Shown piece after piece: positions 5,080 to 63,413 of a stretch of DNA of 64,000 bases. The stretch covers positions 2,868,338 to 2,932,337 of the forward strand of contig OZ245758.1 in assembly GCA_965227405.1 (NCBI GenBank). The letters are read 5' to 3'. A program made the translations under genes and the position numbers. The notes under the pieces were generated by a model. It saw only the letters and a program-made list of their open reading frames with translations, was not told the origin of the DNA and did not search any database. The number at the start of each line of letters is the position of its first letter. Within the stretch, counting starts at the first letter, position 1. This DNA comes from Polyangiales bacterium (GTDB lineage Bacteria > Myxococcota_A > Polyangia > Polyangiales > Houyiibacteriaceae).

Positions 5080-6011
5080 GGCGCCTCTCGACACACCGTG
5101 TGAGGCGTCAGGTCGATCTCGTTCATCCGGGCTGCCGCGTGAACAACAGGTCCCGCGTCCTCATCACTCGAGCACATCACGTTCAACGTGTGATGCGCGA
5201 CGGCACGCGTGTTGTCATGACCCGCTAGTGCAACGAGGGCGTGGATTACCGCCGGCGTATGGTTTCGTGAAAAACTCAGAATGCCAGCTCTCGCAGGCGG
5301 CGAGAGTTCTTGCTCCATGCGCAGCAACCCCGCTGCATTCTGCGGTTCGGCAGTGTTTGCAAAGCGCGTGAGCAGAGCATCGCGCACGGCAACGGGTTGT
5401 TGCGCGTAGCGCTCAGAAATCGGAGTGCCGCTCGCTTCTGAGTACGCGATCTCACCGCATGCAATCCCCCCGTCGGTGAGTTCTCGACGCAGTGCGTTGC
5501 TCACGGTCGACGTCTCATCGGCTTGAGCGCCGATGTCTACGAGCTGGCAGAGCCCAATACTGCGCACAACGGTTCGCTCATGCTCCAACAACGCAAGTAC
5601 TTCCGAGCGTTCGTTGAACGGCTCGTCTTTGGGCATGTCGATATCGACGACAAAGAACACCATCGAGAACAAGAAGAACGCCATCATGGGTTGAAACGCG
5701 GAGATCACCAGCGCCCAAATCGCGTTGCTTCGGATGTACGCGTGCCACGGGCTGTACTCACCGGCAGCATCGCGCGCAGCGGCGTACTTCAGCCATTCGC
5801 GCGCACGACCCACCGCCATGATCGTGGTGATCAGCATCGGGTTGAAGACGATGCCCAGCGCCGCGATGTTGGACGGCTCCCATCGACCCGGTGTGGGATC
5901 GGGTCGTTTCTGTTGCCCAGCAACGCAAACCGGACACTCGGACGCGCCACCGAAGTGGTATTCGAGCACCACGCGTTGGCAGCGTGGACAGTTGCGAGTC
6001 GTTTCTTCCAC
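5076..6011 (-). CDS. zinc-ribbon membrane protein, function unknown
   Basis: N-terminal CPRC...CPVC zinc ribbon, then two TM helices and a soluble C-terminal domain. Lies directly downstream of clpB on the same strand. Confidence 0.4.
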   Translation of the reverse strand: MEETTRNCPRCQRVVLEYHFGGASECPVCVAGQQKRPDPTPGRWEPSNIAALGIVFNPMLITTIMAVGRAREWLKYAAARDAAGEYSPWHAYIRSNAIWALVISAFQPMMAFFLFSMVFFVVDIDMPKDEPFNERSEVLALLEHERTVVRSIGLCQLVDIGAQADETSTVSNALRRELTDGGIACGEIAYSEASGTPISERYAQQPVAVRDALLTRFANTAEPQNAAGLLRMEQELSPPARAGILSFSRNHTPAVIHALVALAGHDNTRAVAHHTLNVMCSSDEDAGPVVHAAARMNEIDLTPHTVCREAP

Positions 6012-6059: not shown

Positions 6060-8657
<2,598 letters not shown>

Positions 8658-11413: not shown

Positions 11414-12759
11414 TGTACGTCGTGGTGGTTGGTCTCGGCGAAGTGGGTCGGCACTTGCTTCAGGTGCTGGAGTTCGAAGGACACGATGTCGTTGCCATCG
11501 ACCGCGATCCCGCTGCGGTGAACTACGCGCGTGAGCATTTTGATGTCGCCACCTTGGAAGGGTATGGCGCCAGCGAAGAGATCCTGGACAAGGCGGGAGT
11601 TGGAAGCGCGGACCTACTCGTCGCCGCAAGTGACCACGACGAGGTGAACCTGATCGCTGCGCTGGCCGCCAAGCAACTCGGTGCCAAACGCGTGATCGCG
11701 CGCGTGCAGCGAAACGATTGGGCCAAGTGGCGAGCCGGTATTCGCTACGGACTTCTCGGGGTGGATGTCGTGATCAACCCACGCGTGTTGGTCGGACAGG
11801 AACTGGGACGCGTTGCACGTTCGCATGGTGCGGTGGACGTGATCGACCTGGCACAGGACCGCGTTGAGCTCGTGCAGATGTCGATGACGTCGCGCATGGC
11901 GAACCGACCGCTTTCCAAACTGCAGCTTCCTTCGCAAACATTGATCGCGGCGTACGTTCGCGACGGCGAGTTGGTGGTTCCTGGCGGAGCCGACGTGTTG
12001 CTTCCGGGCGATACCGTGTACCTGATCGGCCGCCCCGAAGCGATTCTCGAAGCCGAAGATCTGTTTTCGACGGAGCGCGAAGCGCGGCGGATCGTGATCG
12101 TCGGTGGTGGTGTGGTTGGACAAGCGCTTGCGCGCGAATTGCTGCCGCACGGTGTCCAGGTGACGCTCATCGAGCAGGACGAGAAGGTCGCCGAAGAGTT
12201 GGCGGTTCAATACGACGGCTTGGATGTGCGTGTCGGCGATGGAACCAACGCCGATCTGCTGCACGAAATTGAAATCGGAACCTACGACCTCTGCGCGTGC
12301 GTGACGCAAGAGGACGAGATCAACTTGATGGCCGCGTTGATGGCGAAGCGTCACGGAGTTCCGCGTACTGCCGCAGTTGTGAAGCGAGCCGACTACGGTC
12401 CGATCTACAAACAGCTGGGTATCGACATTGTGTTGAGCCCGCGTACGGTGGCGTCGGATCACATTCTTCGCTTCTGTCGCGGTGCCGCGGTGCACTCCGT
12501 TCACACACTGGAAGAAGGCGCGGCGGAAGTCATCGAACTCACTGCGCAACGTGGCTCTCCGATGGTCGGCACGCCGCTCAAGCGCGTGCGCATGCCCAAG
12601 GGCTCTCTGGTCTGCGCAGTGATTCGCCCCGATGACGTCACGGTCCCGCGCGGCGATGACGAAGTGAACGTGGGCGATCGTGTGGTCATCGTCGCCACGG
12701 CTGAAGCGAAGCCGTCGATCGAACGCATGTTCCGAGGGAGGCGCGTATTCAAGCGGTAG
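11413..12759 (+). CDS. trkA: Trk potassium uptake system NAD-binding subunit TrkA
   Basis: 448 aa with two tandem KTN/RCK units. Each has a Rossmann motif (VVVGLGEVGRHL and IVIVGGGVVGQALA) followed by a TrkA_C domain. Confidence 0.85.
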   Translation: MYVVVVGLGEVGRHLLQVLEFEGHDVVAIDRDPAAVNYAREHFDVATLEGYGASEEILDKAGVGSADLLVAASDHDEVNLIAALAAKQLGAKRVIARVQRNDWAKWRAGIRYGLLGVDVVINPRVLVGQELGRVARSHGAVDVIDLAQDRVELVQMSMTSRMANRPLSKLQLPSQTLIAAYVRDGELVVPGGADVLLPGDTVYLIGRPEAILEAEDLFSTEREARRIVIVGGGVVGQALARELLPHGVQVTLIEQDEKVAEELAVQYDGLDVRVGDGTNADLLHEIEIGTYDLCACVTQEDEINLMAALMAKRHGVPRTAAVVKRADYGPIYKQLGIDIVLSPRTVASDHILRFCRGAAVHSVHTLEEGAAEVIELTAQRGSPMVGTPLKRVRMPKGSLVCAVIRPDDVTVPRGDDEVNVGDRVVIVATAEAKPSIERMFRGRRVFKR

Positions 12760-23568: not shown

Positions 23569-23757
23569 ATGGGCGACTTTGCCCTGCTCTTGATCCTGGA
23601 TGACATTGTCGTCGACCCAGCGCGCTTTGAGACCTGGCGAAGCGCGTGGCGCAAAGCACGCCAATACGAAGACCCGGGCGCCATCGAGTTTTTCGATCGC
23701 TACTACGAGTGCGTAGAGACCGGCTTCGCCTACGCGATCAACAAGTTCACGCGTTAG
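23569..23757 (+). CDS. small hypothetical protein (62 aa)
   Basis: High GC3 codon bias consistent with coding. Convergent with the SDR gene and overlapping its 3' end. No domain recognised. Confidence 0.3.
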   Translation: MGDFALLLILDDIVVDPARFETWRSAWRKARQYEDPGAIEFFDRYYECVETGFAYAINKFTR

Positions 23758-25369: not shown

Positions 25370-27280
25370 TCAACCCTCGGAAGTCATCATGCGAAACGGT
25401 GTGGTGTCGATGGGTCCGGTCGCCTCGCCATCGTCGTTGGGCACAGCGAGCGCTTCCATCAAGCCGTTGAGGGTCTGCTCCTGAGGCTGCAACGCGAGTG
25501 CGCGGGTCAGCACCATGCGCGCTTCTTCGCGATTGCCGGTATCGGCGTAGTAGAGCGCGCGTTGGTAGAGGCGCCATACGAGCTGTCGAACCGTTTCGGG
25601 GTCGAGCGGTTTCTCCAGCATGCGCTCGATGCGCGCCCAACTTTTGCGTTCGACGTCGCGACCTTCGGTGCGGTCCACACGCGTGGCACCGTCGGGAACG
25701 ACGCGGTGATACAGACCACCCGGAACCAGCGTGTTTTGGATGTCACGCGACACGCGTAGATCGAGTTCGACGTACACCGGTCTTCGCGATGCGAGAGTTT
25801 GCAGATCGCCGACGTCGATTTCGCCATCAAGCATGTAGCGGTTGAGGAGTGGTCGAAGCATCTCGTCGCGCTCCACCAAAGCGTCGGCCATGCCCGGATA
25901 TGTGAGGAAGGGAACGGGCACAAAGGAGATGTCGGGCCGCAGATGTTCTTCGGCTTCGCCTCCCCAGTAGCGAAAAGCAGTTTGGGGAGCGTACGCGATC
26001 ACGATCGAACCGGTGGGCAAGTGACGCCGCAGTTCTTCATCGAACGTGTCGGGTGAGCGAAGTGCGCTGAACGATGCGTCGGCTCCGTTGTCGGTGATCT
26101 GAAAAGCACATGCACCGGCGATGACTGTGGCAACGGCGAGCGTGAGACGCGTTCGCTCGCCGAGAACGACGATGACCATGCCGCCAAACCCGACCGCGGC
26201 GATGCTCAATGCTGCGATGGCTGGCATCAAATACCCGAGCGCATCAGGGTTTGAGCGTACAAACCCCAACCAAGCACGGGCAGCGATGAACACCGTCGCA
26301 ATGAGCAACCAAAGGATGCCGAGACGTCTGCTGCTGCGTTGTCGGATCAACGCGTAGAAGCCCGCGAGTGCGATGAAGAGAACAGCGACGCTCAAGCTTT
26401 CGCCGAGTTGGATCGCGACGTCGGCAAAGCGCTCCCCCAAAGGTTGCGGAACACCTTCGCCTTGGTTCTTCTGAAACGCCTCTGCACTGACGACCCACCA
26501 CATGCGTCCGAGGTCGTTGGGGTCGCCCAAGCTCAGGTAGGCTCGTCCCGCGCGCAAGGGAAGGTAGATGTAGGTGGCGAGTCCGAGCAGGCCCGCGCCC
26601 AATCCGATACTGAGTGGCCGCCAGCCGCGTTCGCTGACTGCACGTCCCAGTGTCGCAGCGCACGCAGGTAAGATCAGTAGTGCTAAGAAGTGGTGGTTGG
26701 CGAGTGCAAGTGCAAAGGCGAACGTGGCGACGTAGAGTTTGCGCGAGTCGCCTTCGGCTTCGTAGGCGACGATCCGTTCGAGAGCGAAACAGGTGAGCGC
26801 AGCTTGAAGTGCATAGACTTCGGGGCGAACCGCTTGGAGCCACCATCCGAAGCTTCCTGCGCTTAGCCAACACACCCCGATCGCGAGGATGCTGGAATCG
26901 AGCGGCCTTGTTCCGAGACCGCGAAAGGTGCGTTCGGCGGCGAAGTGCACGCAGCCGATGGCGAAGGCAGCGAGAAGTGCGCTGGCGATGGCAGTGCGAA
27001 AAGCAATCGATCCGATGGGGAGCAGCCACGTGAACAGTCCGAGCACCACACCGTTGAGGGGGTGTCCGGGTGGGTGCGAGATGCCGAAGTCGGATGCTTG
27101 GGCGACGAACTCGCCGCCATCGAGCCAGTACCCGTAACCAGATGCCGTGGCGAGATAGCCGGCGAGCGGAGCACCTACGGAGAGCGCGACGGGCCACGCG
27201 GATCGGACGGTACTGCTCAAGGCCGAAGCGATGGTGTCCTTGTGGAGGTGTGGGGTCAAACCATTGCATGCTCTGGCCAT
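25370..27280 (-). CDS. DUF2723/TMEM260-like polytopic membrane protein (glycosyltransferase-39-like fold) with C-terminal TPR-like region
   Basis: 636 aa. The N-terminal GYGYWLDGGEFVAQASDFGISHPPGHPLNG motif is typical of DUF2723/PMT-like transferases. About 11 TM helices are followed by a soluble helical/TPR-like tail. The start matches the CAT at 27278-27280. Confidence 0.55.
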   Translation of the reverse strand: MARACNGLTPHLHKDTIASALSSTVRSAWPVALSVGAPLAGYLATASGYGYWLDGGEFVAQASDFGISHPPGHPLNGVVLGLFTWLLPIGSIAFRTAIASALLAAFAIGCVHFAAERTFRGLGTRPLDSSILAIGVCWLSAGSFGWWLQAVRPEVYALQAALTCFALERIVAYEAEGDSRKLYVATFAFALALANHHFLALLILPACAATLGRAVSERGWRPLSIGLGAGLLGLATYIYLPLRAGRAYLSLGDPNDLGRMWWVVSAEAFQKNQGEGVPQPLGERFADVAIQLGESLSVAVLFIALAGFYALIRQRSSRRLGILWLLIATVFIAARAWLGFVRSNPDALGYLMPAIAALSIAAVGFGGMVIVVLGERTRLTLAVATVIAGACAFQITDNGADASFSALRSPDTFDEELRRHLPTGSIVIAYAPQTAFRYWGGEAEEHLRPDISFVPVPFLTYPGMADALVERDEMLRPLLNRYMLDGEIDVGDLQTLASRRPVYVELDLRVSRDIQNTLVPGGLYHRVVPDGATRVDRTEGRDVERKSWARIERMLEKPLDPETVRQLVWRLYQRALYYADTGNREEARMVLTRALALQPQEQTLNGLMEALAVPNDDGEATGPIDTTPFRMMTSEG

Positions 27281-28823
27281 GTCGAAGGTGACCGACCAGA
27301 TCGATCAGGCGTCCGAGAAGCAGCGGGAGCTACCGAAAGAGGCGATGGTGGTGACTTCGCACCCGCGTGCCGTAGAGGCGGCGACCAAGGTGCTCGAGGC
27401 AGGAGGTCATGCCGTTGATGCCGCGATTTGTGCAGCTGCAGTGCTGGGCGTCGTGGACCCCATGAGCACAGGTGTGGGTGGGGACTGTTTTGCGATGGTG
27501 TGGGACGCGCACGCGTTGTACGGGTTCAACGGATCGGGGCGTGCGCCGGCGAAGGCATCGTTGGAGGATCTGCAGGCACGAGGTCTGGACGCGGTGCCCG
27601 AGCGCGGTGTGTTGCCGATCACAGTTCCGGGAGCGGTGGACGCGTGGTGGCAGTTGCATAAGCGCTTCGGTCGCGCGTCATGGGATTCGTTGTTGGAGCC
27701 GGCGGTCGTTGCAGCGCGGGACGGCTTCGCAGTCACGCCTGTGGTGGGACGTGACTGGGGTCGCAGCGCGTACGCGTACCAACCGGTTCCGCAGGTGGGT
27801 CAGGTGTATACGCAGCCCGAGTTGGCGCAGTCGCTTTCGAAGCTACAGCGCGGTCGAGATGTGTTCTACAGCGGCGAGTTGGCCGATGCGATCGCAGCAC
27901 GTGTTGCGGAGGACGATGGTTGGCTGACGAAGTCGGATCTTGAAGCGCATCAGGGCGAGTGGGTGGAACCGCTTGAAGGGGTGTATCGCGGACATCCCGT
28001 GTACGAGTTGCCGCCCAACGGGCAGGGCGTGGTGGTGTTGCAAGCGTTGGCAATGCTCGAAGAGCTTTCGCTGCGCGACATGGATGTGGTGGAGCAGACC
28101 CATGTGCAGATCGAAGCGTTGAAGTTGGCGTTTGCGGATGCGCGAGTGCATGTGGGCGATCCTTCGCGAAGCGATGTGTCGCGTTTGCTCGACTACGCGT
28201 ACATCGAAGAGCGCGTGAGCCTGATCGGCGACCAGGCTTGCGCCTCGGCGGTGGGTGGACTGCCGAATGGCGACACCGTGTACGTCGCTGTGGTGGATGC
28301 GCAGGGCAACGCGTGTTCGTTGATCAACAGCGTGTACATGCACTTTGGATCTGGCGTTGTGGTTGACGGAATGTGCTTACAAAACAGAGGTGTTCTGTTT
28401 CGGAGCGATCCAGCGCATCCAAGTGCGTTGGCACCGGGCCGAAGGCCGTACCACACGATCATTCCGGCGATGGCGTTTCGGGGCTTGGTGCCTTGGTTGG
28501 TGTTTGGGGTCGTCGGTGGTTACCAGCAGCCGCAAGCGCAGGTGCAGCTACTGCATCGTTGGATCGATCGTGGAGAAGCCTTGCAAGCTGCGGTGGATGC
28601 ACCGCGCTTCCGGTGGATCGAGGGGAACAAGGTTCAACTCGAAGAGGGTACCGATCCAACGTTGATCGAAGGGTTGCGAAACCGAGGCCACAACGTGGTG
28701 GAGGGAGCTGCGTTCGGAGGCTTTGGTGGAGCTCAAGCGATCGAGATCAGCGAGTCACTCACTGGTGCGACTGACCCACGCAAAGACGGAACCATCGGGG
28801 TGTTAACTTTGGGGACAGGTTAA
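27279..28823 (+). CDS. ggt: gamma-glutamyltransferase
   Basis: Start placed at MSKVTDQ. GGT family motifs are present (TSHPRAVEAATKVLEAGGHAVDAAI, and the catalytic-Thr region GDTVYVAVVDAQGNACSLINSVYMHFGSGVV). The stop codon lies inside the left inverted repeat of the downstream repeat element. Confidence 0.85.
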   Translation: MSKVTDQIDQASEKQRELPKEAMVVTSHPRAVEAATKVLEAGGHAVDAAICAAAVLGVVDPMSTGVGGDCFAMVWDAHALYGFNGSGRAPAKASLEDLQARGLDAVPERGVLPITVPGAVDAWWQLHKRFGRASWDSLLEPAVVAARDGFAVTPVVGRDWGRSAYAYQPVPQVGQVYTQPELAQSLSKLQRGRDVFYSGELADAIAARVAEDDGWLTKSDLEAHQGEWVEPLEGVYRGHPVYELPPNGQGVVVLQALAMLEELSLRDMDVVEQTHVQIEALKLAFADARVHVGDPSRSDVSRLLDYAYIEERVSLIGDQACASAVGGLPNGDTVYVAVVDAQGNACSLINSVYMHFGSGVVVDGMCLQNRGVLFRSDPAHPSALAPGRRPYHTIIPAMAFRGLVPWLVFGVVGGYQQPQAQVQLLHRWIDRGEALQAAVDAPRFRWIEGNKVQLEEGTDPTLIEGLRNRGHNVVEGAAFGGFGGAQAIEISESLTGATDPRKDGTIGVLTLGTG

Positions 28824-29065
28824 CTATTTAACCGACCCTCGATCTCTAAGTCATTGAAACCACGAGTTTCGTGTGTGCTTGGACATGCTTTGCAGGCGCC
28901 TCAGAGAGCGTTTCGCAATGCTCCTACTTCAGATCACACCTGACTCGTGGATGTGAGCCGAGTTTCTTCGGCGCAGGGCGCCAGATCTGATTCGCTGAAT
29001 TGAATGATCTTGGTCAGTTGGAGATCGAGGGTCGGTTAAATAGTTAACCTGTCCCCAGAGTTAAC
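28802..29065. mobile_element. MITE-like element, 264 bp, with 45-bp terminal inverted repeats (GGGGACAGG-hairpin family, copy A)
   Basis: Left arm gttaactttggggacaggttaactatttaaccgaccctcgatctc and right arm gagatcgagggtcggttaaatagttaacctgtccccagagttaac match at 44 of 45 positions as reverse complements. The interior is lower-GC non-coding DNA. Both convergent flanking genes have stop codons in or against the arms. Coordinates +/- 2. Confidence 0.7.
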
Positions 29066-29926
29066 CTACTCCAAGAACGGGGTGCAGTACTCGTCGCTGA
29101 TGAGTTCGGTGATCGCTGTGGCCATGTCCAGGGTTCCGGCTCGCACGTCGCGGATGCTCCAGGCTCGGCCACCGGTTTGGTTGGGCAGGGTGTCCATTCC
29201 CAAGTACGGCTCGTGAAAACCTTGGCCCACGTTGGGCGACATCCCGGCTCCACAAAACTCGCCTGCGCCCGGCGCCGAAAAACTTCCCACACGCAATTCG
29301 TTGCTCACCAACACGCCTGCAACTTCGGAGTACATCCGCTCGATCGGGATTCCACTCAGCGACGCTCCTCGCTCCGCAAACGTATCGTCGGTTGCGTGGA
29401 TGATCAGCTTGGTCGCGCTCGGTCGCCACGGACACGCGGTTGCTGCGGCCCACAACGCATCCAGACTGTTCTCGGGACAATCACCGTTGGAATCCGAACC
29501 GCCACCTGCAGGCTGTCGGTTGGTCGAGGTGAAATCGCGCCAGTTCATGAACTCGGCCTGCAATGACTCCACGGTCGTGAAGTTCGCACACCCATTCACG
29601 GTCACGACGTCGTCGACAAACACAACCAAGCCAAACTGGGTATCTGAAGTCAGCGCACGTGCTGCATTCCAGACACTGGTGATCCCGTTGGTGATCTGAT
29701 CCAACTCGTCTTCCATCGACGTGCTCGTATCGATCACGAACACCACATCCAAAGGATCGTCGCACTCGCTATCGGCATCGATGTTCGAGTCGGTCCCTGG
29801 TACATCCGGAACACCCAACGTGTCGCTCGCAGGCACATCGGCGACACCGCCGTCGCGCGTGGGTCGGTCGTCGTCACCACACGCACCAAGAACAACAACG
29901 AGAGCAAGCGAGCATCTTCCAAGCAT
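29066..29926 (-). CDS. secreted VWA domain lipoprotein
   Basis: 286 aa with a lipobox (VVVLGACGDDD) and the MIDAS motif VFVIDTSTSM (DxSxS). Its stop abuts the right inverted repeat of repeat copy A. Confidence 0.65.
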   Translation of the reverse strand: MLGRCSLALVVVLGACGDDDRPTRDGGVADVPASDTLGVPDVPGTDSNIDADSECDDPLDVVFVIDTSTSMEDELDQITNGITSVWNAARALTSDTQFGLVVFVDDVVTVNGCANFTTVESLQAEFMNWRDFTSTNRQPAGGGSDSNGDCPENSLDALWAAATACPWRPSATKLIIHATDDTFAERGASLSGIPIERMYSEVAGVLVSNELRVGSFSAPGAGEFCGAGMSPNVGQGFHEPYLGMDTLPNQTGGRAWSIRDVRAGTLDMATAITELISDEYCTPFLE

Positions 29927-37528: not shown

Positions 37529-39283
37529 CTAGCGGCCTGCCGGACGACCGCCTTTTCGCGGGTCCGACGCGGCGATGAGCCGTCCGTTTCGAATCCGAAT
37601 CAGCTGAACATTGGCCACATTGCGGATCGTCCGGTGGACATGACCGCGGGCGAGCAGACCGGCCAACCGCTGCTCGTCCATGGGAGCAACCTCTTCGGTT
37701 CGGATCTCGTTGGGGACGGCCTGGTGATGGATCCGCGGAGCCTCGAGCGCCTCGTGTGGCTCCATGTCGAAGAGCAACTGGTTCATCGCAACTTGCTGCG
37801 TGGCCGTCACGATGCGGCTTCCTCCTGCAGCACCGGCGCACAACACCGGGCCGTTGTCGTCGAACACAATGGTGGGCGACATCGTGGACACAGGTCGCTT
37901 GCCCGGTCCGGGAAGATTCGGCGCACCACCCACCAACCCAAACGCGTTCACTTCGCCCACACCCCGTGCGAAGTCGTCCATCTCGTCGTTCATGACGATC
38001 CCTGCTGCGCTGTAGCGTGCACCGAAGGGGAGATTGACCGTGGTCGTCAGCGACGCGACGTTGCCTTCGCGATCGACCACGCACAGATGCGATGTACCTG
38101 CGTTGTCGGACTGCACCACGTTGTCTTCAGGTCGCAGCGGAAGATCGTAGTCGTCGGAGGGATTGGCCAACGCGGGATGAAACGCATTGGCGCGCGCCTG
38201 CAGCCGACTGGGGTTCATCATCTCGCCGAGTGGAAGTTCGACGTGATCGGGATCGCCAAAGTAGCGCTGGCGATCCAGGAAGGGACCTTTCCAGGACTCC
38301 GCAGTCGCATGAAGGAACGGAACTTCGGGACGCGCGCCTCCAGTGGGCCGCCAACGCTCCGGGATTCGCTCCAGAATCGCCAAGCTTTGCAGCATGGTGA
38401 AACCACCCGCACTGGGTGGCGGTGCCGTCACCCAGCTGAAACCAAAGTGGCTGGCGTCGAGTGGATCGCGACGGACAACTTCGTAGTCGCGCAGATCGTT
38501 CATGGTCATCACGCCACCAAAGCGGCGATTCGCTTGCACGATCTGACGTGCGATCCGACCTCGGTAAATCGCGTCGTGACCACCACGACCAAACGCTTGA
38601 AGGGTCCGTGCAAGTTGCGCCTGTCGAAGAAGGTCACCTTCGCGCATTCCGCCTTCGGCTTGAGGGAACCAGGTGCGCATCAGCGGGTCGCGTCGCATCT
38701 GTGCGCCAAAGAACGTACTCATCCGGGCCAGTCCGCTACTGACAGGTACACCGCGTTGAGCGAGACGCACGGCGGGTTGAACAATGGTCGAAAGTGGGAG
38801 CGATCCAAACTCGCTCACCATCTTGGCGATGCCTGCCGGTTCACCCGGAACGCCCGAAGCGAGCCCGAAGAGTTGCGATGCTTGGTTCGCCGGTCCGTCC
38901 ATGGGTGGTTCCACGTCGTCGTACATCGTCGGGCTTGCCGCTGCGGGTGCACGCTCGCGAAAATCGAGGAAGTGCAGCGAACGATCGCTGGCTTTGAAGT
39001 AGAGCAAGAAGCCACCGCCGCCCATGCCACTCGATGCGGGGTTGGCGACGCCCAGTGCGAGTGCAGTGGCTGCAGCAGCGTCGGCGGCATTGCCTCCTCG
39101 ACCGAGGATCTCCGCGCCGGCTGCACTTGCGAGTGGGTGATCGGCGGCGACAGCCATCTCCTGGTACTCGGCCCAGAACGTATCGGCGGTGCTGACCTCG
39201 CGTTCGGTGGGCGCTTGACCCGACAGTGCGAGCAAGAGGATCCCAAGCACGAGGATTCGGATTCGCATACTCCTGCCTAGCAT
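37529..39283 (-). CDS. gamma-glutamyltransferase (second paralog, secreted)
   Basis: Signal peptide MRIRILVLGILLLALSG. GGT motifs are present (TSHLCVVDREGNVASLTTTVNLPFGARYSAAGIVMNDEMDDF). The track ORF extends upstream to 39394; the start was chosen at the signal peptide. Confidence 0.8.
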   Translation of the reverse strand: MLGRSMRIRILVLGILLLALSGQAPTEREVSTADTFWAEYQEMAVAADHPLASAAGAEILGRGGNAADAAAATALALGVANPASSGMGGGGFLLYFKASDRSLHFLDFRERAPAAASPTMYDDVEPPMDGPANQASQLFGLASGVPGEPAGIAKMVSEFGSLPLSTIVQPAVRLAQRGVPVSSGLARMSTFFGAQMRRDPLMRTWFPQAEGGMREGDLLRQAQLARTLQAFGRGGHDAIYRGRIARQIVQANRRFGGVMTMNDLRDYEVVRRDPLDASHFGFSWVTAPPPSAGGFTMLQSLAILERIPERWRPTGGARPEVPFLHATAESWKGPFLDRQRYFGDPDHVELPLGEMMNPSRLQARANAFHPALANPSDDYDLPLRPEDNVVQSDNAGTSHLCVVDREGNVASLTTTVNLPFGARYSAAGIVMNDEMDDFARGVGEVNAFGLVGGAPNLPGPGKRPVSTMSPTIVFDDNGPVLCAGAAGGSRIVTATQQVAMNQLLFDMEPHEALEAPRIHHQAVPNEIRTEEVAPMDEQRLAGLLARGHVHRTIRNVANVQLIRIRNGRLIAASDPRKGGRPAGR

Positions 39284-39672
39284 CGCCGTGCCGGCGTGGG
39301 ATCGATTTCGTTGAAGTGCTCCCAGGCGTTCGCGTTCAACAGGAGGAGCTGCGCGTCTGAGATCGCACTTTTGAAGACCAATCCATCGCTCCAAAGGTTG
39401 ACGTGGCGCGCGCCCTTCATTCCGCTTTCCGGGCGAAGCTGAACCACAGTTTCAGGGCGTTCGAAGGAGACTTGCCCCGCCCCGAATCCGTATCGCCACA
39501 TCGAGATCTTCAGAGCGCGTTGGTCGGTGATGGCTTCAGCCAACTCCCAATCCTGAAAGTCGGCTCCCCAAAGAGCACCTTCTTCCACCAGCTTCGCCCA
39601 GAGAGCTTCGGCTTCTTGCCACTTCTTCACGGCAAAAATGGAGCACTTGAAGGGCCGAGAAGCAAGATGCAT
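39277..39672 (-). CDS. hypothetical protein
   Basis: 131-aa soluble ORF between the GGT paralog and gshB. No recognised domain. Confidence 0.3.
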   Translation of the reverse strand: MHLASRPFKCSIFAVKKWQEAEALWAKLVEEGALWGADFQDWELAEAITDQRALKISMWRYGFGAGQVSFERPETVVQLRPESGMKGARHVNLWSDGLVFKSAISDAQLLLLNANAWEHFNEIDPTPARRC

Positions 39673-39683
39673 GGTCCCTCACG

Positions 39684-40631
39684 ATGCGACTGCTCTTCGT
39701 GATGGATCCGGTCGACACAGTGATCGTCGACGAAGACACTTCGTTCGCGATCATGTTCGAAGCGCAGCAGCGCGGGCATCGGGTCGACCACTGCTTGGTG
39801 CAAGACGTGGAGCTAATCGAAGGACGGTGTCGCGCCGCGGTTCGACAAGCCACGCTGCAGAAGAATCCTGATGCACCGGTGCTGCTCGGTGAGACCGAGC
39901 TGGTCGATGTTGCCGACGTCGACGTGGTGTTCATTCGGAAGGACCCACCCTTCGACGACGAGTACCTCTGGCTCACGCTGTGTTTGGAACGCGTGCGTGG
40001 TCAGACCCTGGTGATCAACGATCCGGCAGGGCTTCGTGCCGCGAACGAAAAACTCTACGCCGCACACTTTCCCGAGTTGATGCCGCGCACGCTGGTGGCC
40101 GCTGACAAGGATCGCATCAAAGCCTTTGTCAAAGACGTGGGTGGCCGTGCGGTGATCAAGCCGGTGGATGGTCATGGTGGCGAAGGCATCTTCGCGCTGG
40201 GCTTGGATGACCCGAACCTCAACGCCCACATCGAGACGGTCACGCGTCACGGCAAGCGCGTCGCGATGGTGCAGGCGTTCATCGACGAGGTGTCGAAGGG
40301 CGACAAGCGCATCCTTCTGATGGAAGGCGAAGTGCTCGGCGCGATCTTGCGGGTTCCGCAGGGCGGCGACCTTCGTTCCAACATTCACGTGGGTGGCCGA
40401 GTCGTGGCCACCGATATCGACGAACACGATCGCCGCATCATCGACACGATGCGCGATCGCTTGAAACAAGATGGGCTGATTTTCGTGGGACTCGACGTCA
40501 TTGGTGGAAAGCTCACCGAAGTGAACGTCACCAGTCCGACGGGCATTCAGCAGATGTCGCGACTTTCGGGCACCAACTGCGAAGCACCGGTGCTTGATTG
40601 GCTCGAACGACACGCAGGAGAAACCAAGTGA
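39684..40631 (+). CDS. gshB: glutathione synthetase (prokaryotic ATP-grasp type)
   Basis: 315 aa. N-terminal MRLLFVMDPVDTVIVDEDTSFAIMFEAQQRGH (GSH-S N-domain) and C-terminal ATP-grasp region (KPVDGHGGEGIF, RILLMEGEVLGAILRVP, NIHVGG, GLDVIGGKLTEVNVTSPTG). Confidence 0.85.
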   Translation: MRLLFVMDPVDTVIVDEDTSFAIMFEAQQRGHRVDHCLVQDVELIEGRCRAAVRQATLQKNPDAPVLLGETELVDVADVDVVFIRKDPPFDDEYLWLTLCLERVRGQTLVINDPAGLRAANEKLYAAHFPELMPRTLVAADKDRIKAFVKDVGGRAVIKPVDGHGGEGIFALGLDDPNLNAHIETVTRHGKRVAMVQAFIDEVSKGDKRILLMEGEVLGAILRVPQGGDLRSNIHVGGRVVATDIDEHDRRIIDTMRDRLKQDGLIFVGLDVIGGKLTEVNVTSPTGIQQMSRLSGTNCEAPVLDWLERHAGETK

Positions 40632-42730: not shown

Positions 42731-43303
42731 ATGGCGTTTGAGGTTAAGGGGAGGGCGCTCGTTGCGACGATGCGGATGCTGGGCAAGGCGCCGGGCGGGG
42801 CCTCCTCAATCCTCGGCACCATGTCGGCGGACGACCAGGCGTACTTCGGCGAGTTGTTTCTGGAAGCCGGTTGGTATGCGATGGATCCCTACGTTCGGAT
42901 CATGGCGACCATCGCTGGAGCGCGCGGCTTATCGGTGCGGGAGTGGATGCGCATGCAAGCCGATCGGACTGCAGCGAGTGATGTTGAAGGCATCTATCGC
43001 ATGAGTCTCAAGTCCGCTTCGTTGGGTGACATGGCCAAGCGTTTGCCACGTGCATTCAATCGCTACTTCCAGCCCTGCAACGCCGTGTTGATGAAGCTTG
43101 GTGACGATTTCGCCGACTTCGAGTTGCGCGTGATTCCGACCAAGCACGCGGAGTTCTTCCGAGGCATCAACGAAGGCTTTGTGGTGGGTGCGCTTCGGTA
43201 TGCCGGCGCGAACAAACCGCGCGTGCGTTACGGCGACCCGGTTGCAGGCGACGCGCACGAGGGCGAAGCCACGTTGACGATGCCCTTTCGCGCGTCGTTT
43301 TAG
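42731..43303 (+). CDS. hypothetical protein (possibly a Myxococcales-type paralogous family)
   Basis: 190-aa soluble ORF with good codon bias. The TIGR02265/DUF2378 assignment is tentative. Confidence 0.35.
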   Translation: MAFEVKGRALVATMRMLGKAPGGASSILGTMSADDQAYFGELFLEAGWYAMDPYVRIMATIAGARGLSVREWMRMQADRTAASDVEGIYRMSLKSASLGDMAKRLPRAFNRYFQPCNAVLMKLGDDFADFELRVIPTKHAEFFRGINEGFVVGALRYAGANKPRVRYGDPVAGDAHEGEATLTMPFRASF

Positions 43304-44071: not shown

Positions 44072-44668
44072 ATGGGGGATGACTACGAGCGCGACTACAT
44101 GGACGGCGATGGCGCCATGTATCGAGAGAAGCACGTCTCCAAGTTGTTCTCGGCGTTGATGTTGTTGCCGGCGTTGGCTGCTGCTGCGGGTGGAATTGCC
44201 GCCGCGGTGCAGGGGGATTTTGCGGGAGCCGGCGCACTGGCTGTGGGTGCTTTGGGAGCCGGAACCGCCGGAGTGTTCTTCTCGGTGATGCGGACGATCG
44301 TGACTCCGAGCGAACTACGAGTGCAGTACGGAACGTTGGGACCGACCGTGGAACTCTCGTCGATTCGTTCGGTGGAAGTCGTGCGACTCAACGCCATGAC
44401 GCGACTGGCGATTGGCCCGAAGATTTGGCCCGAAGGTTGGCGTTATGTGTTTCCAGGAGCCACGCATGGAGTGCGTGTCGTGTACCAGGACGGGAAGCGA
44501 ACGAAGACGATCACCATTGCGGCCGATGATCCTGAAGCCTTAGCCGCGGCGATCCACCAGTCGAGCGCGACCGTGGGCATGCAAGTGCGCGTGGAAACCT
44601 CGACCGAGCAAGAAGTAGAAGAACAAGCGGGAGACTCAACCGACGAAGAATCCGAAACGCACCCATAG
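44072..44668 (+). CDS. hypothetical membrane protein
   Basis: Two N-terminal TM helices (Ala/Gly-rich), then a roughly 100-aa soluble domain. Its stop lies 13 nt before repeat copy B. Confidence 0.35.
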   Translation: MGDDYERDYMDGDGAMYREKHVSKLFSALMLLPALAAAAGGIAAAVQGDFAGAGALAVGALGAGTAGVFFSVMRTIVTPSELRVQYGTLGPTVELSSIRSVEVVRLNAMTRLAIGPKIWPEGWRYVFPGATHGVRVVYQDGKRTKTITIAADDPEALAAAIHQSSATVGMQVRVETSTEQEVEEQAGDSTDEESETHP

Positions 44669-44681
44669 GGGTGGGGATTTT

Positions 44682-44786
44682 GGGGACAGGGTCAGATCTG
44701 ACCTGAACTATGTGGCCATACATTCGCGTTTTAGGAAAAAGCGGACTGTATTTCGGGGAGTCCGGTTCAGATCTGACCCTGTCCCC
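44682..44786. mobile_element. MITE-like/REP-like element, about 105 bp, with 20-bp perfect terminal inverted repeats GGGGACAGGGTCAGATCTGA (family copy B)
   Basis: The left arm is ggggacagggtcagatctgacc and the right arm is tcagatctgaccctgtcccc. Each arm contains the palindrome tcagatctga. It sits between convergent genes. Coordinates +/- 2. Confidence 0.6.
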
Positions 44787-44809
44787 AATCTGAACTTTAC
44801 CCGGTTGGG

Positions 44810-45547
44810 TTATTCGGGCGATGTCCACGCTGTGTCGAAGAGTTGTTCGCTGAGCGGAGACCAGGTTGTCCACTTGTGGATCCCGGGTCTCGCGACCACG
44901 CGATCACTGGGTAGGAAGCCGCCCAACAAGGCGTGGTCGGGGGCACCGGGATCCTCGGTTCCGTAGGTCAGAAAGATCGGCGTTCCGCTTCGGTTGCGCG
45001 CCTGCAACTGCTCGCGAATCCAGACCCACACTTTCCGGGTTTGGCGTGGCCGGCTGTCTTCCATGGTCGCCAGATCCCCCGACTCCCACTCGCCCAGGTT
45101 TTCGGCTTCGCGAATCTCGGCCAACACTTCCGGCTCGCCCAAGTAAGGCGCAAACAACATCACACCGTCGATATCCTCGGGATGTGCCTGCGCATAACTC
45201 AACGCCCCAAAGCCACCCATCGACACACCGACGATCCAAACCTGGCGGTAGCCCATCGCTTGCGCGCGTGAGAACACATCGGCTTCCAACGCGTCGACCA
45301 ACGTAAACCCGCGATAGAAACCGAAGTGTGATCCCACGGCGATCGAATCCCAGCCGTGTTGCTTGGCGCGCTCGACCAAACCCCAACGCTCGAAGCTTCC
45401 AGCGTTGTCCCCAAGTCCATGCAGAAACACGATGAGTCCACGCGCTCGATGCGAACCCTGGTCCGCGTAATCAAGCACACGCATGGGACGTGTTGGCGAT
45501 GTGAGCATGCAGCTCTGAAGCAGGAGCGCGATCCAAACCAAGCGCAT
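44810..45547 (-). CDS. alpha/beta hydrolase (esterase family)
   Basis: Start placed at MRLVWIALLLQSCM (signal peptide). It has VFLHGLGDNAGSF and the nucleophile elbow GVSMGG. The track's N-terminal extension would overlap the Fpg/Nei gene. Confidence 0.6.
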   Translation of the reverse strand: MRLVWIALLLQSCMLTSPTRPMRVLDYADQGSHRARGLIVFLHGLGDNAGSFERWGLVERAKQHGWDSIAVGSHFGFYRGFTLVDALEADVFSRAQAMGYRQVWIVGVSMGGFGALSYAQAHPEDIDGVMLFAPYLGEPEVLAEIREAENLGEWESGDLATMEDSRPRQTRKVWVWIREQLQARNRSGTPIFLTYGTEDPGAPDHALLGGFLPSDRVVARPGIHKWTTWSPLSEQLFDTAWTSPE

Positions 45548-46398: not shown

Positions 46399-46962
46399 TT
46401 GCCGGCCATGAAAACGCACCAAGCTCGCCCGATGATCCTTTCCCAAGACGACGTTCTTTCGAAGGATGAGTGCGCAGAATGGATTGCGTGGGCTGAGCAA
46501 CGTGGGTTTCACCGCAGTCCGGTCATGAGCGAGAAGGGCCGCGAGTACGACCAAGCGGTGAGAAACAACGAACGCTTCGTGGCGGATGATCCCGGTCGCG
46601 CCAAGGTGCTCTTCGATCGACTCCGCAAGCATCTGCCGCGCTTGCAAGGTTGGGCGCCCACAGCGTGCAACGAACGCATTCGAATCTATCGCTACGATGC
46701 TGGGATGCGTTTTCGTCGTCATCGCGACGCGGCGTTTGAACGTCAGGACGGAGAGCGTTCCAAACTCACCCTGCTCGTGTATCTCTCGGACGAGTTCGAA
46801 GGCGGCGAGACCTGGTTTCCCCAGTTCACCTACTCGCCCAGACTCGGCGCCGCGTTGCTCTTCGAACACGATCAAGATCACGCCGGCGTCGTCGTCACCG
46901 AGGGACGCAAGTACGTCGCGCGATCCGACGTGATGTACTTCCCGGACTGGTCTCAACCGTAG
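46399..46962 (+). CDS. 2OG-Fe(II) oxygenase superfamily protein (prolyl-4-hydroxylase-like)
   Basis: 187 aa with the HRD...H facial-triad pattern (FRRHRDAAF, then EHDQDHAGVVV) and a conserved RxS-like C-terminal region. Confidence 0.55.
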   Translation: MPAMKTHQARPMILSQDDVLSKDECAEWIAWAEQRGFHRSPVMSEKGREYDQAVRNNERFVADDPGRAKVLFDRLRKHLPRLQGWAPTACNERIRIYRYDAGMRFRRHRDAAFERQDGERSKLTLLVYLSDEFEGGETWFPQFTYSPRLGAALLFEHDQDHAGVVVTEGRKYVARSDVMYFPDWSQP

Positions 46963-61744: not shown

Positions 61745-62242
61745 GTGGGTAAGCCGAAGAAGCAGAAGTACGACGAGATGTTGTTCTTCTCGATCGCGAA
61801 GCCTGACGTCGATGCGGTGTTGAGGAAGGTCTTGGACGAACAGCGATACCTACTCGGTGTCGACGTTGTGGAAGAAAACGAGGTTTCGGTCCGGCATGTT
61901 CATTGGAGACGCGACGCACCGCCGATCAAGATCGATGAAGTGACCGGCAAGCTCGCGAAGCTCCGTATCGAGACAGCGCTCGAAGATCTGCAAGAGGTCG
62001 TCGATGCAAATCCCTACGCGTGGTTCACGCAATCTCCGCAGGAGGTGCGCGCACTGCGGCAGAGACTCAAGCAAGCATCCACTGTGGTGCGTTTTCGCCA
62101 CCCCGACGTGGGTATGGGTTGGCGTGGACCGTTCCGGGTGAGTCGTGCGCTTGCGGGCAAGCTTCGCTTCCAGTCAGGCGGAGTGTTGAAGCTCGCCGAC
62201 TACAGCTTCGAAACCCCCGGCGGTAAAGTCATCGGCCGCTAG
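61745..62242 (+). CDS. hypothetical protein
   Basis: 165-aa soluble ORF, last gene before repeat copy C. No domain recognised. Confidence 0.35.
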   Translation: MGKPKKQKYDEMLFFSIAKPDVDAVLRKVLDEQRYLLGVDVVEENEVSVRHVHWRRDAPPIKIDEVTGKLAKLRIETALEDLQEVVDANPYAWFTQSPQEVRALRQRLKQASTVVRFRHPDVGMGWRGPFRVSRALAGKLRFQSGGVLKLADYSFETPGGKVIGR

Positions 62243-63413
62243 GTGTAAATTATGGGGACAGGTTCATTAATGAACCGACCCATGATCGCTAAGCATGCGA
62301 AATTGCTGAAACTGGTGACGGCTCACGTGTGCGTCACGCAAAAGCCACGTGTTCGTGATGAGCCGTTTGGGGGAGTCGCTCGTAGAACCGAGCAGGCGAC
62401 GGCGCGCGCTATCTCCAATTCTCCATCCCCAATTGCCGCGCGCGTCGTCGCCCTCCTTCGAGAGCTACGAGGCTTTGGCTTCGAGCAGCGCTTCGACCGG
62501 GGCAAACCGTTGGGTTAGCTGCGCCATGACGTCGGTCACATCCACGCTCATGCGTTCGCTGAAAAGCGTCAGATCGAGCACCAAGTTGCTGACCGCCATT
62601 TCGATCAGCGACGGCTCGTCGGTCACCACCGCACGGTTGTCGTTGGTTTCCTGCGCGCCACCGACCAACAACTCATTTCGATCGACCAAGAGGATGATCT
62701 TGTGTTCCCAATGTGCGGCGAGCGAGTCGGGGTCGATGTCGTAGGTGAGTGTGCGTCCCACGTTAGGTAACGGTGTAAACGAGAAGAGAGTTACGTCCAC
62801 GCCGCGATCGACCGCATCTTGTAGTGCTTTCTCAAAGTGACGAGCTTCGCGTCCCCAGACCGACGCCACGACAGTGGACTTCGCTTTCTCGATCTTCTGA
62901 ACTGCCTGCTCGAGCATCGCTTCGTACCCTTCCACCGTCCACGTCACCGAAGTGTCGGGCTTGTCGGCGAGACGATCGATGCCTCCACGAAGTGACTCGA
63001 GGCTGCGCGTGAAACGTGTTTCGAGAAGCGCAAAGAGTTTCTCAGGCGCGAGCGGAACGTAGCGTGCTGGCTTTTCTTGAACTGCGTTGATCAGTCCCAA
63101 GCTTTGGAGCCGCTTGAGTACGTTGTAGATGGCCGAGCGCGGCACACCCGATTGCGTCGCCAGTTCATAGCCCGTTGCCGGGTTGGTCTTGAGGAGCGCG
63201 ACGTACGCTCGCGCATCGGTCGCTGTGAAGCCGAGCTGCTTCATCGCGGCGACAACCTTCTCCTCAACCTCCTGGGCCATACGATCGGCATACTGGACTC
63301 TGAAGCGTCACGCAAACATGAGTTACGCCGGAGGCAAGCCAGGTCAGTGTGGTTTCAAGCACTTAGCGATCACGGGTCGGTTCATTCCTGAACCTGTCCC
63401 CGAAATTTACACG
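62243..63413. mobile_element. 1.17-kb element bounded by about 47-bp inverted repeats of the GGGGACAGG-hairpin family (copy C), carrying a TrmB-family regulator gene
   Basis: The left arm is gtgtaaattatggggacaggttcattaatgaaccgacccatgatcgc. The reverse complement of the right arm is gtgtaaatttcggggacaggttcaggaatgaaccgacccgtgatcgc. The arms align with those of copy A (GGGGACAGGTT, palindrome, ACCGACCC, then GATC). The interior has visibly lower GC than the flanks. Confidence 0.6.
62465..63280 (-). CDS. TrmB-family transcriptional regulator
   Basis: 271 aa. The N-terminal winged helix (LGFTATDARAYVALLKTNPATGYELATQSGVPRSAIYNVLKRLQSLGLI) is the TrmB signature, and a C-terminal effector-binding-like domain follows. 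Confidence 0.7.
   Translation of the reverse strand: MAQEVEEKVVAAMKQLGFTATDARAYVALLKTNPATGYELATQSGVPRSAIYNVLKRLQSLGLINAVQEKPARYVPLAPEKLFALLETRFTRSLESLRGGIDRLADKPDTSVTWTVEGYEAMLEQAVQKIEKAKSTVVASVWGREARHFEKALQDAVDRGVDVTLFSFTPLPNVGRTLTYDIDPDSLAAHWEHKIILLVDRNELLVGGAQETNDNRAVVTDEPSLIEMAVSNLVLDLTLFSERMSVDVTDVMAQLTQRFAPVEALLEAKAS

Follow-up and report, generated by a model that had tools for sequence, protein, structure and literature searches.

A candidate REP-doublet-like repeat family placed on the stop codons of convergent genes in a Polyangiales bacterium

Introduction

What occupies the gap between two convergent genes, a gamma-glutamyltranspeptidase gene (ggt) and a gene for a VWA protein, in the genome of a Polyangiales bacterium (assembly GCA_965227405.1)? 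The gap lies in a 64-kb stretch of contig OZ245758.1 (positions 2,868,338 to 2,932,337; hereafter the window, whose numbering is used throughout unless a relative's locus is named). [quoted passage not shown] In this study, we report that A belongs to a family of inverted arm pairs that is placed on the stop codons of convergent genes, that shows unusually high conservation, and whose pairs are gained or lost as whole units without target duplication. With modest confidence, we read A as a copy of a lineage-restricted, non-autonomous mobile element that resembles the doublets of repetitive extragenic palindromic (REP) sequences known as REPINs or bacterial interspersed mosaic elements (BIMEs), but that carries a new tag and longer units. 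Because it resembles these known palindromic repeats, the family is a new repeat family and not a new principle.

Results

Element A reaches into the genes that flank it

A repeat search of the window returned inverted-repeat arms at 28802-28849 and 29018-29065, each 48 nt long, 96% complementary and 168 nt apart; the whole element thus measures 264 bp. This is the same feature that had been read, slightly shorter, as 45-bp arms matching at 44 positions. When a 37-nt arm pattern was searched at up to 3 mismatches, only the two A arms matched in the window (0 expected). Each A arm carries, in order, GGGGACAGG, the sequence GGTTAA-CTAT-TTAACC, and GACCC. The ggt open reading frame (ORF; Pfam G_glu_transpept) has the final codons V L T L G T G, and its TAA stop at 28821-28823 is within the left-arm hairpin. 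The VWA gene stops immediately beside the right arm (29066-29068, CTA on the plus strand). Both placements had been proposed before and are confirmed by the ORF coordinates; the proposed non-coding interior of lower GC content was confirmed too (0.52 in the interior and 0.42-0.46 in the arms, compared with 0.61 in the window).

The sequence shared among copies is longer than the arms first read, and extends on the left side from ~28791 (ACCATCGGGGTG...) to ~28863 (...CTAAGTCATTGAAACCAC). The left arm encodes the last 11 ggt codons and the TAA stop. Because a second ggt gene in the window (37529-39394) ends in ...SDPRKGGRPAGR before its stop, the LTLGTG tail of the first is arm-derived. The left arm is also 80% similar over 64 nt to the right arm of pair C (see below), and the outer end of the right arm is truncated relative to the copy in the related locus L011. 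As a side observation, the two gamma-glutamyltranspeptidase paralogues (27231-28823, and 37529-39394 on the minus strand) lie within 13 kb together with a glutathione synthetase gene (39684-40631), and the three form a glutathione-turnover neighbourhood.

Six cores in the window form three inverted pairs

The 9-mer GGGGACAGG occurs exactly 6 times in the 64-kb window, where 0.37 occurrences are expected. All six cores belong to three inverted pairs, A (28811+/29056-), B (44682+/44786-) and C (62254+/63401-), and the suggestion that the arms recur at about 44.7 and 62.2-63.4 kb as a genuine family was thereby borne out. Because the 9-mer is never found outside arms, a reading as a DNA-uptake sequence was rejected. 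An integron attC reading was rejected on sequence grounds as well: GTTAACT misfits the attC consensus GTTRRRY, the elements are too long, and one of them surrounds a gene that has a promoter region of its own.

A covariance model was built from the six window arms, which score 49-69 bits with it; the next-best match reaches 12.5 bits. Since this model finds the six paired arms only, the window is without single or degenerate copies. The arm consensus reads (ACC..)GGGTG, ~8 AT-rich nt, GGGGACAGG, a 6-bp stem with a 4-nt loop, CGACCC, and NNGATCNCTAAG. The stems differ by pair yet stay complementary (GGTTAA/TTAACC in A, GGTTCA/TGAACC in C, and GGGTCAG/CTGACC in B), and arms within one pair agree at subfamily-specific positions. 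The basic unit of ~55-75 nt ends in one of two tails, CGACCC..CTAAG (type 1) or GGACTCCCC (type 2), and the palindrome is flanked by a conserved GGGGACA on its 5' side and by GACCC or GGACTCCCC on its 3' side. Between copies, homology is limited to the arms (55-65 nt), and the sequences inside A, B and C, as well as inside D (an additional pair found in L011), are unrelated and unique. The inverted repeats span 48 nt at 96% in A, 30 nt at 90% in B and 51 nt at 90% in C, and the arms of B and C are separated by 49 nt and 1068 nt, respectively. The right arm of B is nearly identical to a solo arm in L013 that is described below. Features are listed in Table 1.

Table 1. Arms, spacer, enclosed gene and empty insertion site in the window
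Feature	Position	Strand	Arm-model score (bits)	Remarks
Element A left arm, full	28791..28863	+	69.3	Outer module ACCATCGGGGTG, GTTAAC, GGGGACAGG (28811-28819), hairpin GGTTAA-CTAT-TTAACC (6-bp stem, 4-nt loop), GACCC, tail TCGATCTCTAAG..GAAACCAC
Element A spacer	28864..29017			Non-coding, no ORF >46 codons; unrelated to the B, C and D spacers
Element A right arm	29018..29065	-	62	Core GGGGACAGG at 29056-29048, minus strand
Element B left arm	44660..44709	+	53.8	CACCCATAGGGGTG...GGGGACAGG-GTCAGATCTGACC
Element B right arm	44747..44809	-	48.9	Type 2: GGGGACAGG-GTCAGATCTGAACC-GGACTCCCC
Pair C left arm	62243..62293	+	66.6	Stem GGTTCA/TGAACC
Pair C right arm	63349..63412	-	65.1	Conserved in L012
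TrmB-family helix-turn-helix regulator	62465..63280	-		271 aa; enclosed by pair C; Pfam PF01978/PF11495
Empty site of D	23753..23754			Junction of ...AAGTTCACGCG and TTAGCTGCGG...; two convergent stops overlap as TTAG

The arms are placed on stop codons

Measured from the stop codon of a gene in the sense orientation, the core of every arm starts at a point that ranges from 20 nt inside to 38 nt beyond. In the left arms of A and B and the right arm of C, the stop codon is itself within the arm sequence. In B, the TAG stop of a 198-aa gene (44666-44668) lies inside the outer module of the left arm, and the outer module of the right arm, ACCCAACCGGGT, directly follows the TAA stop (44810-44812) of an alpha/beta-hydrolase gene. 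In C, the left arm begins right behind the TAG stop (62240-62242) of a 165-aa gene, and a 187-aa minus-strand ORF enters the right arm and stops in its hairpin loop (63382-63384). A, B and D fill gaps between convergent genes. In a gene map of the window built on codon usage, element-free pairs of convergent genes normally touch or overlap, the gaps being from -75 to +23 nt, and the convergent gaps of 140-240 nt are those that hold arms. The proposed location at 3' gene ends, comparable in role to that of REP-type elements (PMC3733652), was thus upheld. It was also observed that convergent junctions are nearly devoid of intergenic DNA unless an element is present, and that overlaps of the stop codons, or of a few codons, are very frequent at them (23754-23757, 43300-43303, 39277-39280 and 46953-46962, among others), one example being a TTAG shared by TAG and TAA.

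Whole pairs come and go in relatives

Over 5 kb of shared sequence, the window is 97.4% identical to the related locus L002 and 89.1% identical to L011, and all three are ~76% identical to L003; the tree used was ((window,L002),L011),L003. A is found at the same ggt/VWA junction and in identical orientation in L011, and in L002 the contig end falls inside the arm. A is absent from L003-L008 (the 76% lineage); in these relatives, for which a figure of 80-82% was also obtained, ggt diverges exactly after ...AAAGACGGA, at window position 28790, where the outer module of A begins. L011 contains, moreover, the extra complete pair D (arms at 6202-6255 and 6339-6392, 59-60 bits), which relative to the window is a 223-nt insertion made up of the arm pair and its spacer. 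L002 starts inside the right arm of the same D insertion, with an identical outer flank, and D is absent from L003 and L008. The upstream ORF ends K-F-T-R-stop with or without D. Given the tree, D was gained once and then either cleanly lost in the window lineage or removed by allele replacement. This presence/absence polymorphism shows that the family is mobile, or at the least that its pairs come and go whole, in line with the earlier suggestion that it inserts.

The arm model also picked out copies in the relatives: L011 has A and D, L012 has C, and L002 has truncated ends of A and D. A solo arm of the B right-arm type (GGGGACAGG-GTCAnnnnTGAACC-GGACTCCCC; 39 bits) was found in the 76% lineage at 6018-6071 of L013, with no inverted partner within 440 nt. 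This arm indicates that the family is older than the species of the window, that it has two arm types, and that single units are possible.

The ends of the elements were also compared. At the filled D site, the direct repeat amounts to 1 bp or less, and when the flanks of A, B, C and D were searched for repeats without bias, nothing significant emerged, the longest repeats at A and D being offset from the ends of the inverted repeats. A TA or TTAA target duplication was inconsistent across copies and was rejected. On its left the inserted D block reaches 12 nt past the inverted repeat, and on its right 26 nt; these extra nucleotides recur at other copies: GAACCAY..GGGTG precedes the left arms of A, D and B, and ACCCGGTTGGG-TTA follows the right arms of B and D. 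Because the outer nucleotides recur in this way, the boundaries of 28802 and 29065 given in the first-pass annotation slightly under-call the element. Direct repeats containing GGGT were noted around A (CGGGGTG, 7 nt, 28795-28801 and 29084-29090) and, in similar form, around D (TTGGGT, 6 nt, approximately at L011 6204-6209 and 6412-6417). In both elements, they sit 12-26 nt outside the right end of the inverted repeat and have the same form. Individually they are not significant (33/500 and 97/500 shuffles), and they may be part of the true element termini.

Given that whole units are gained and lost, that the inverted repeats are long and near-perfect, and that the elements are small, A might be a classical MITE or a mobile insertion cassette (MIC). 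Its arms would then be the terminal inverted repeats for a DDE transposase encoded elsewhere, its target duplications would be eroded or very short, and the copies would be independent deletion or capture derivatives; the 1.2-kb copy C, which encloses a passenger-like gene, would fit this picture. The type-1 ends GGGGTG...CTAAG also loosely resemble Tn3-type ends, which is a lead only; membership in the Tn3-derived miniature elements (TIMEs) was rejected (see Discussion). We consider this explanation unlikely, though not negligible. Of the features that define a MITE, terminal inverted repeats are present, and a fixed-length duplication and a shared body are absent: at the sole site known both filled and empty no duplication beyond 1 bp is seen, flank repeats at A, B and C are not significant, and the bodies are unrelated between copies. 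Moreover, the D block runs 12 and 26 nt past the inverted repeat into nucleotides that recur elsewhere, a solo arm exists, nothing related was found in 72,556 plasmids or in phages, and the "passenger" TrmB gene is a resident whose neighbours are conserved in armless relatives. The MITE label of the first-pass annotation could therefore not be retained, as only the arms are shared and no autonomous relative was found in the loci and collections searched; with no duplication, no shared body and no parent found there, a MITE is the weaker reading compared with a REP-doublet-like element.

Other observations concern the same junctions in relatives. In L011, 47 extra nt (11728-11774) at the outer end of the A right arm form a partial copy of the A spacer minus 11 nt, the arm ending in GGTGTTAAC there versus the truncated GTAGGTTAAC in the window; the extension may be real or may be an artefact of the 1.92x long-read contig. 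At the same ggt 3' junction in the 76% lineage (L003-L007, 11555-11737; L008, 10286-10328) lies other repeat-rich sequence, GGGGAGTAGGGGAGTTCGGCCCAC..GGGAGACTTCGCCCACTTTTTT followed by inverted AT-rich GAAATTTCCAAATTTCC motifs, and all seven contigs end inside it. This may be another repeat family in the same niche. Short-read metagenome contigs of the relatives were repeatedly found to stop inside arm hairpins or other repeats (L002 at both ends, L012 at its 3' end, and L003-L008 at their 3' ends), and the elements thus fragment short-read assemblies of this clade.

Element A matches amino-acid-determining codon positions in conservation

A has 96.4% identity between the window and L011 (97.5-98% in the arms and 95.3% in the unique spacer), whereas the flanking ggt and VWA genes are 87.4% and 88.6% identical, respectively. 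In these genes, third codon positions are 65-79% identical and first and second positions 96-97%, so non-coding A is conserved like positions that determine amino acids. On the VWA side the drop is abrupt, with 69% third-position identity in the adjacent 216 nt. The right end of D provides a second independent case (52/54 nt identical between L002 and L011), which favours constraint.

Alignment of 13 distinct arms showed a hairpin with a 6-bp stem, a 4-nt loop and a 3-5-bp outer stem, in which 95% of the hairpin cells are paired and 2/9 pairs show compensatory changes, chiefly at pair 26:33, where the subfamilies differ in having C-G or A-T. The same covariation would be expected if the palindrome were bound, as duplex DNA, by a dimeric protein. 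In folding analyses, pairing between the arms dominates (A as RNA, -151 kcal/mol, z -11.9; B as DNA, z -7.4), and a transcript of A is predicted to form a very stable hairpin. No sigma-70-like promoter was found in or beside A, and neither A arm is followed by a T-run. The idea of a bidirectional terminator, raised in the first-pass annotation, is not supported in that form.

A host-evolved, immobile module at 3' ends (a terminator, an RNA-stability determinant or a protein-binding site), spread by homologous recombination or gene conversion and not by transposition, might account for the strict placement at the stop codons of convergent genes, for conservation equal to that of non-synonymous positions, and for the intra-arm palindrome, which could bind a dimeric DNA-binding protein. 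We regard such a module as improbable, more so than a MITE. A 223-nt unit with a unique spacer comes and goes with no flanking homology to drive recombination, and the subfamily-specific match within pairs speaks for copying and not for convergence. In addition, there is no terminator consensus or T-run, and the core 9-mer never occurs outside arms.

Pair C encloses a resident TrmB gene

The TrmB-family gene between the arms of C has hundreds of orthologues (50-93%) in Myxococcota-like genomes. In L009, L013-L019, L023 and L024, the orthologues lack arms, and the neighbourhood DUF3616, RRM_1, TrmB, OMP, Pkinase is conserved. Because this neighbourhood is conserved in relatives without arms, TrmB is a resident gene, and its roles as cargo of a cassette C or as a transposase-like partner were rejected.

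A block of ~79-110 nt just downstream of TrmB (62376-62454; also L013 9562-9640 and L009 ~5327-5400) was noted as a separate feature. It is a GC-rich inverted repeat, GGCGACGGCGCGCGC...GCGCGCGTCGTCGCC with the loop CTATCTCCAATTCTCCATCCCCAATTGC, is 86-95% conserved in all relatives versus ~80% nucleotide identity for TrmB, is reversed relative to TrmB in L013, and has no Rfam match. It could be a conserved non-coding RNA, a hairpin or a tiny invertible segment.

The gene order around C also differs among relatives. The block from Metallophos to TrmB (window ~62243 to beyond 64000) is inverted in the window/L012 lineage compared with L009, L013, L023 and L024, in which the order is ...157-aa gene, Metallophos(-) DUF3616 RRM_1 TrmB, OMP Pkinase...; in the window/L012 lineage, RRM_1 is replaced by ~3 kb of other genes. 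The left arm of C coincides with one inversion breakpoint, and the right arm borders the replaced segment. At the second breakpoint, in L012, no arm turned up, and an arm-mediated inversion is accordingly not supported. Inverted repeats at such a position might nonetheless be sites for a site-specific recombinase, forming an invertible switch, or breakpoints of rearrangement. This we judge very improbable, since no recombinase gene is nearby, inversion of A or B between the 3' ends of genes would switch nothing, the other breakpoint in L012 is armless, and A is oriented alike in the window and L011.

An apparently narrow distribution of the family

In Rfam, the window had no match that reached the gathering score, and for A and C there was none even at E<=1. 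BLAST against 72,556 plasmids (PLSDB) and 50,697 phage records gave no match. When GTDB representative genomes, among which the host genome is not included, were scanned with GGGGACAGG-N13-CGACCCNNGATC, one chance-like match was obtained in a Desulfobaccales metagenome-assembled genome, and it was rejected by the arm model. In JGI metagenomes, a first pattern gave 0 matches, and a pattern covering both arm types gave 3 matches of 13-18 bits with broken stems, which equals the chance expectation. A pattern scan of viral contigs found no family member, and a literature search on the core motif returned unrelated G-rich sequences only. An autonomous element with the same termini was found in none of the window, the relatives' loci, plasmids, phages, viral contigs, JGI metagenomes and GTDB representatives. 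There are 3 pairs in 64 kb of the window, 2 in 21 kb of L011 and 1 in 11 kb of L012, a density of about one pair per 10-20 kb; the 76% lineage has one solo arm in ~45 kb, and L009 has none in 15 kb. Judged by these scans, the family appears to be limited to a narrow clade.

Discussion

The findings above can be joined in a model of how a REP-doublet-like element might spread and persist. The GGGGACAGG-hairpin would be recognised in trans by an enzyme whose gene lies at another place in the 9-Mb genome. The most plausible substrate would be folded single-stranded DNA, as it is for HUH/Y1 enzymes of the RAYT (REP-associated tyrosine transposase) or IS200 type. HUH/Y1 systems (IS200/IS605, RAYT) insert and excise without duplications. 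Copies persist in the spaces that separate convergent genes, and there they supply the stop codons or take their place. By analogy, the elements may be transcribed into both 3' untranslated regions (UTRs), where the arm hairpin or the 48-bp arm-arm duplex could block 3' exonucleases and read-through and so stabilise 3' ends. Such a blocking role in 3' UTRs would explain why orthologues are conserved as strongly as amino-acid-determining positions. The full form of this model is more doubtful: that the family is a REPIN-like replicator in Myxococcota with its own tag (GGGGACAGG plus hairpin), possibly with a non-RAYT enzyme, co-opted by the host as bidirectional 3' caps that insulate convergent genes and provide their stops, kept under purifying selection equal to that of protein-coding positions, and able to be seamlessly excised, is an idea to which we give little credence, slightly less than to the MITE explanation.

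The family offers useful handles, namely a narrow clade, a site filled and empty between genomes that are 97% identical, no duplication, and conservation of whole elements including their spacers. It is therefore a tractable case in which to ask whether such repeats are selfish elements, have been domesticated, or both, and in which to look for the enzyme that acts on a non-GTAG tag. Moreover, the elements rewrite the C-termini and stops of flanking genes, as seen from the 11-residue tail gained by ggt, and masking of the elements is advised for annotators of these genomes.

Several described families of small elements can be compared with the one reported here. Like the Correia elements of Neisseria, the repeat units of pneumococcus (RUP) in Streptococcus pneumoniae, and the enterobacterial repetitive intergenic consensus (ERIC) or intergenic repeat units (IRU), the present elements are small, non-coding and intergenic, and have terminal inverted repeats; by analogy, they may also be co-transcribed with their neighbours and fold into long hairpins. 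Unlike these elements, which share a body, a fixed duplication (TA in Correia elements) and ends resembling those of insertion sequences, the present copies have unrelated bodies, and a duplication was not seen. TIMEs have 38-bp inverted repeats homologous to those of the Tn3 family, a 5-6-bp AT-rich duplication and a conserved body of ~262 bp, and they usually occur as single copies in the vicinity of transposases (PMC4133298). The type-1 arms GGGG(TG)...CTAAG and the pair that encloses a gene are reminiscent of a TIME or cassette, whereas type-2 arms lack CTAAG. By the published definition (PMC4133298), a Tn3/TIME assignment is excluded, since the arms are 54-75 nt long, there is no duplication and the bodies are unrelated. 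PLSDB, which is rich in Tn3-family transposons, also gave no BLAST match.

REP and REPIN repeats, which have been studied best in Gammaproteobacteria, are the systems against which the preferred reading has to be weighed. A REP unit is 20-40 bp long, a REPIN is ~100 bp with its units <130 bp apart, and a genome typically holds tens to hundreds of copies together with a single-copy RAYT gene (a Y1 HUH transposase) that is flanked by REPs. REPs and REPINs form inverted dimers with variable spacers, favour convergent genes and lie within 20 bp of both 3' ends, and their termini supply stop codons, their stems form subfamilies and their evolution is slow and vertical (PMC3733652; 10.1101/2021.07.10.451892; 10.1101/2024.07.17.603846). 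What defines the REP superfamilies is a conserved tetranucleotide at one palindrome end, either GTAG or CGTC (PMC3733652).

A number of points weigh against a REP-doublet-like identity. The tag of the present family is GGGGACAGG, and the alignment shows no conserved GTAG or CGTC; the unit is 55-75 nt long and not 20-40; and A, at 264 bp, and D, at ~190 bp between arm ends, exceed the ~100 bp of a REPIN. No transposase, recombinase, Y1/HUH or RAYT gene was found in the 64-kb window, in which essentially all plausible genes were compared to Pfam, or in ~200 kb of the relatives' fetched loci, which were read by their existing annotation. Individual arm hairpins are weak, with folding energies as DNA of -5 to -9 kcal/mol and z scores from -0.5 to -3.4. 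The covariation support for the hairpin is real but thin, as it amounts to essentially two events in the aligned sequences. No intrinsic-terminator consensus was found in 28600-29300 on either strand, and the function in 3' UTRs is proposed by analogy. The conservation of A may, in part, reflect a recombination tract, because identity on the ggt side changes gradually, third positions climbing from 76% in the penultimate 222-nt bin to 86% in the last.

Because its tag and its unit length do not match, the family was not filed within the described REP superfamilies; its host, of a Myxococcota-like lineage, is a further difference. The core spacing of B, 96 nt, is within the REPIN limit, and those of D, A and C are 162 nt, 245 nt and 1.1 kb. 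In organisation, however, the likeness to REPINs and BIMEs is extensive. A short palindrome sits beside a conserved tag, and most units lie in inverted pairs that surround a variable spacer, single units being found too; the elements are extragenic, are near both stops of convergent genes and sometimes supply them, and leave no evident target duplication; and, as in REPINs and BIMEs, the stems fall into subfamilies and orthologous copies evolve slowly.

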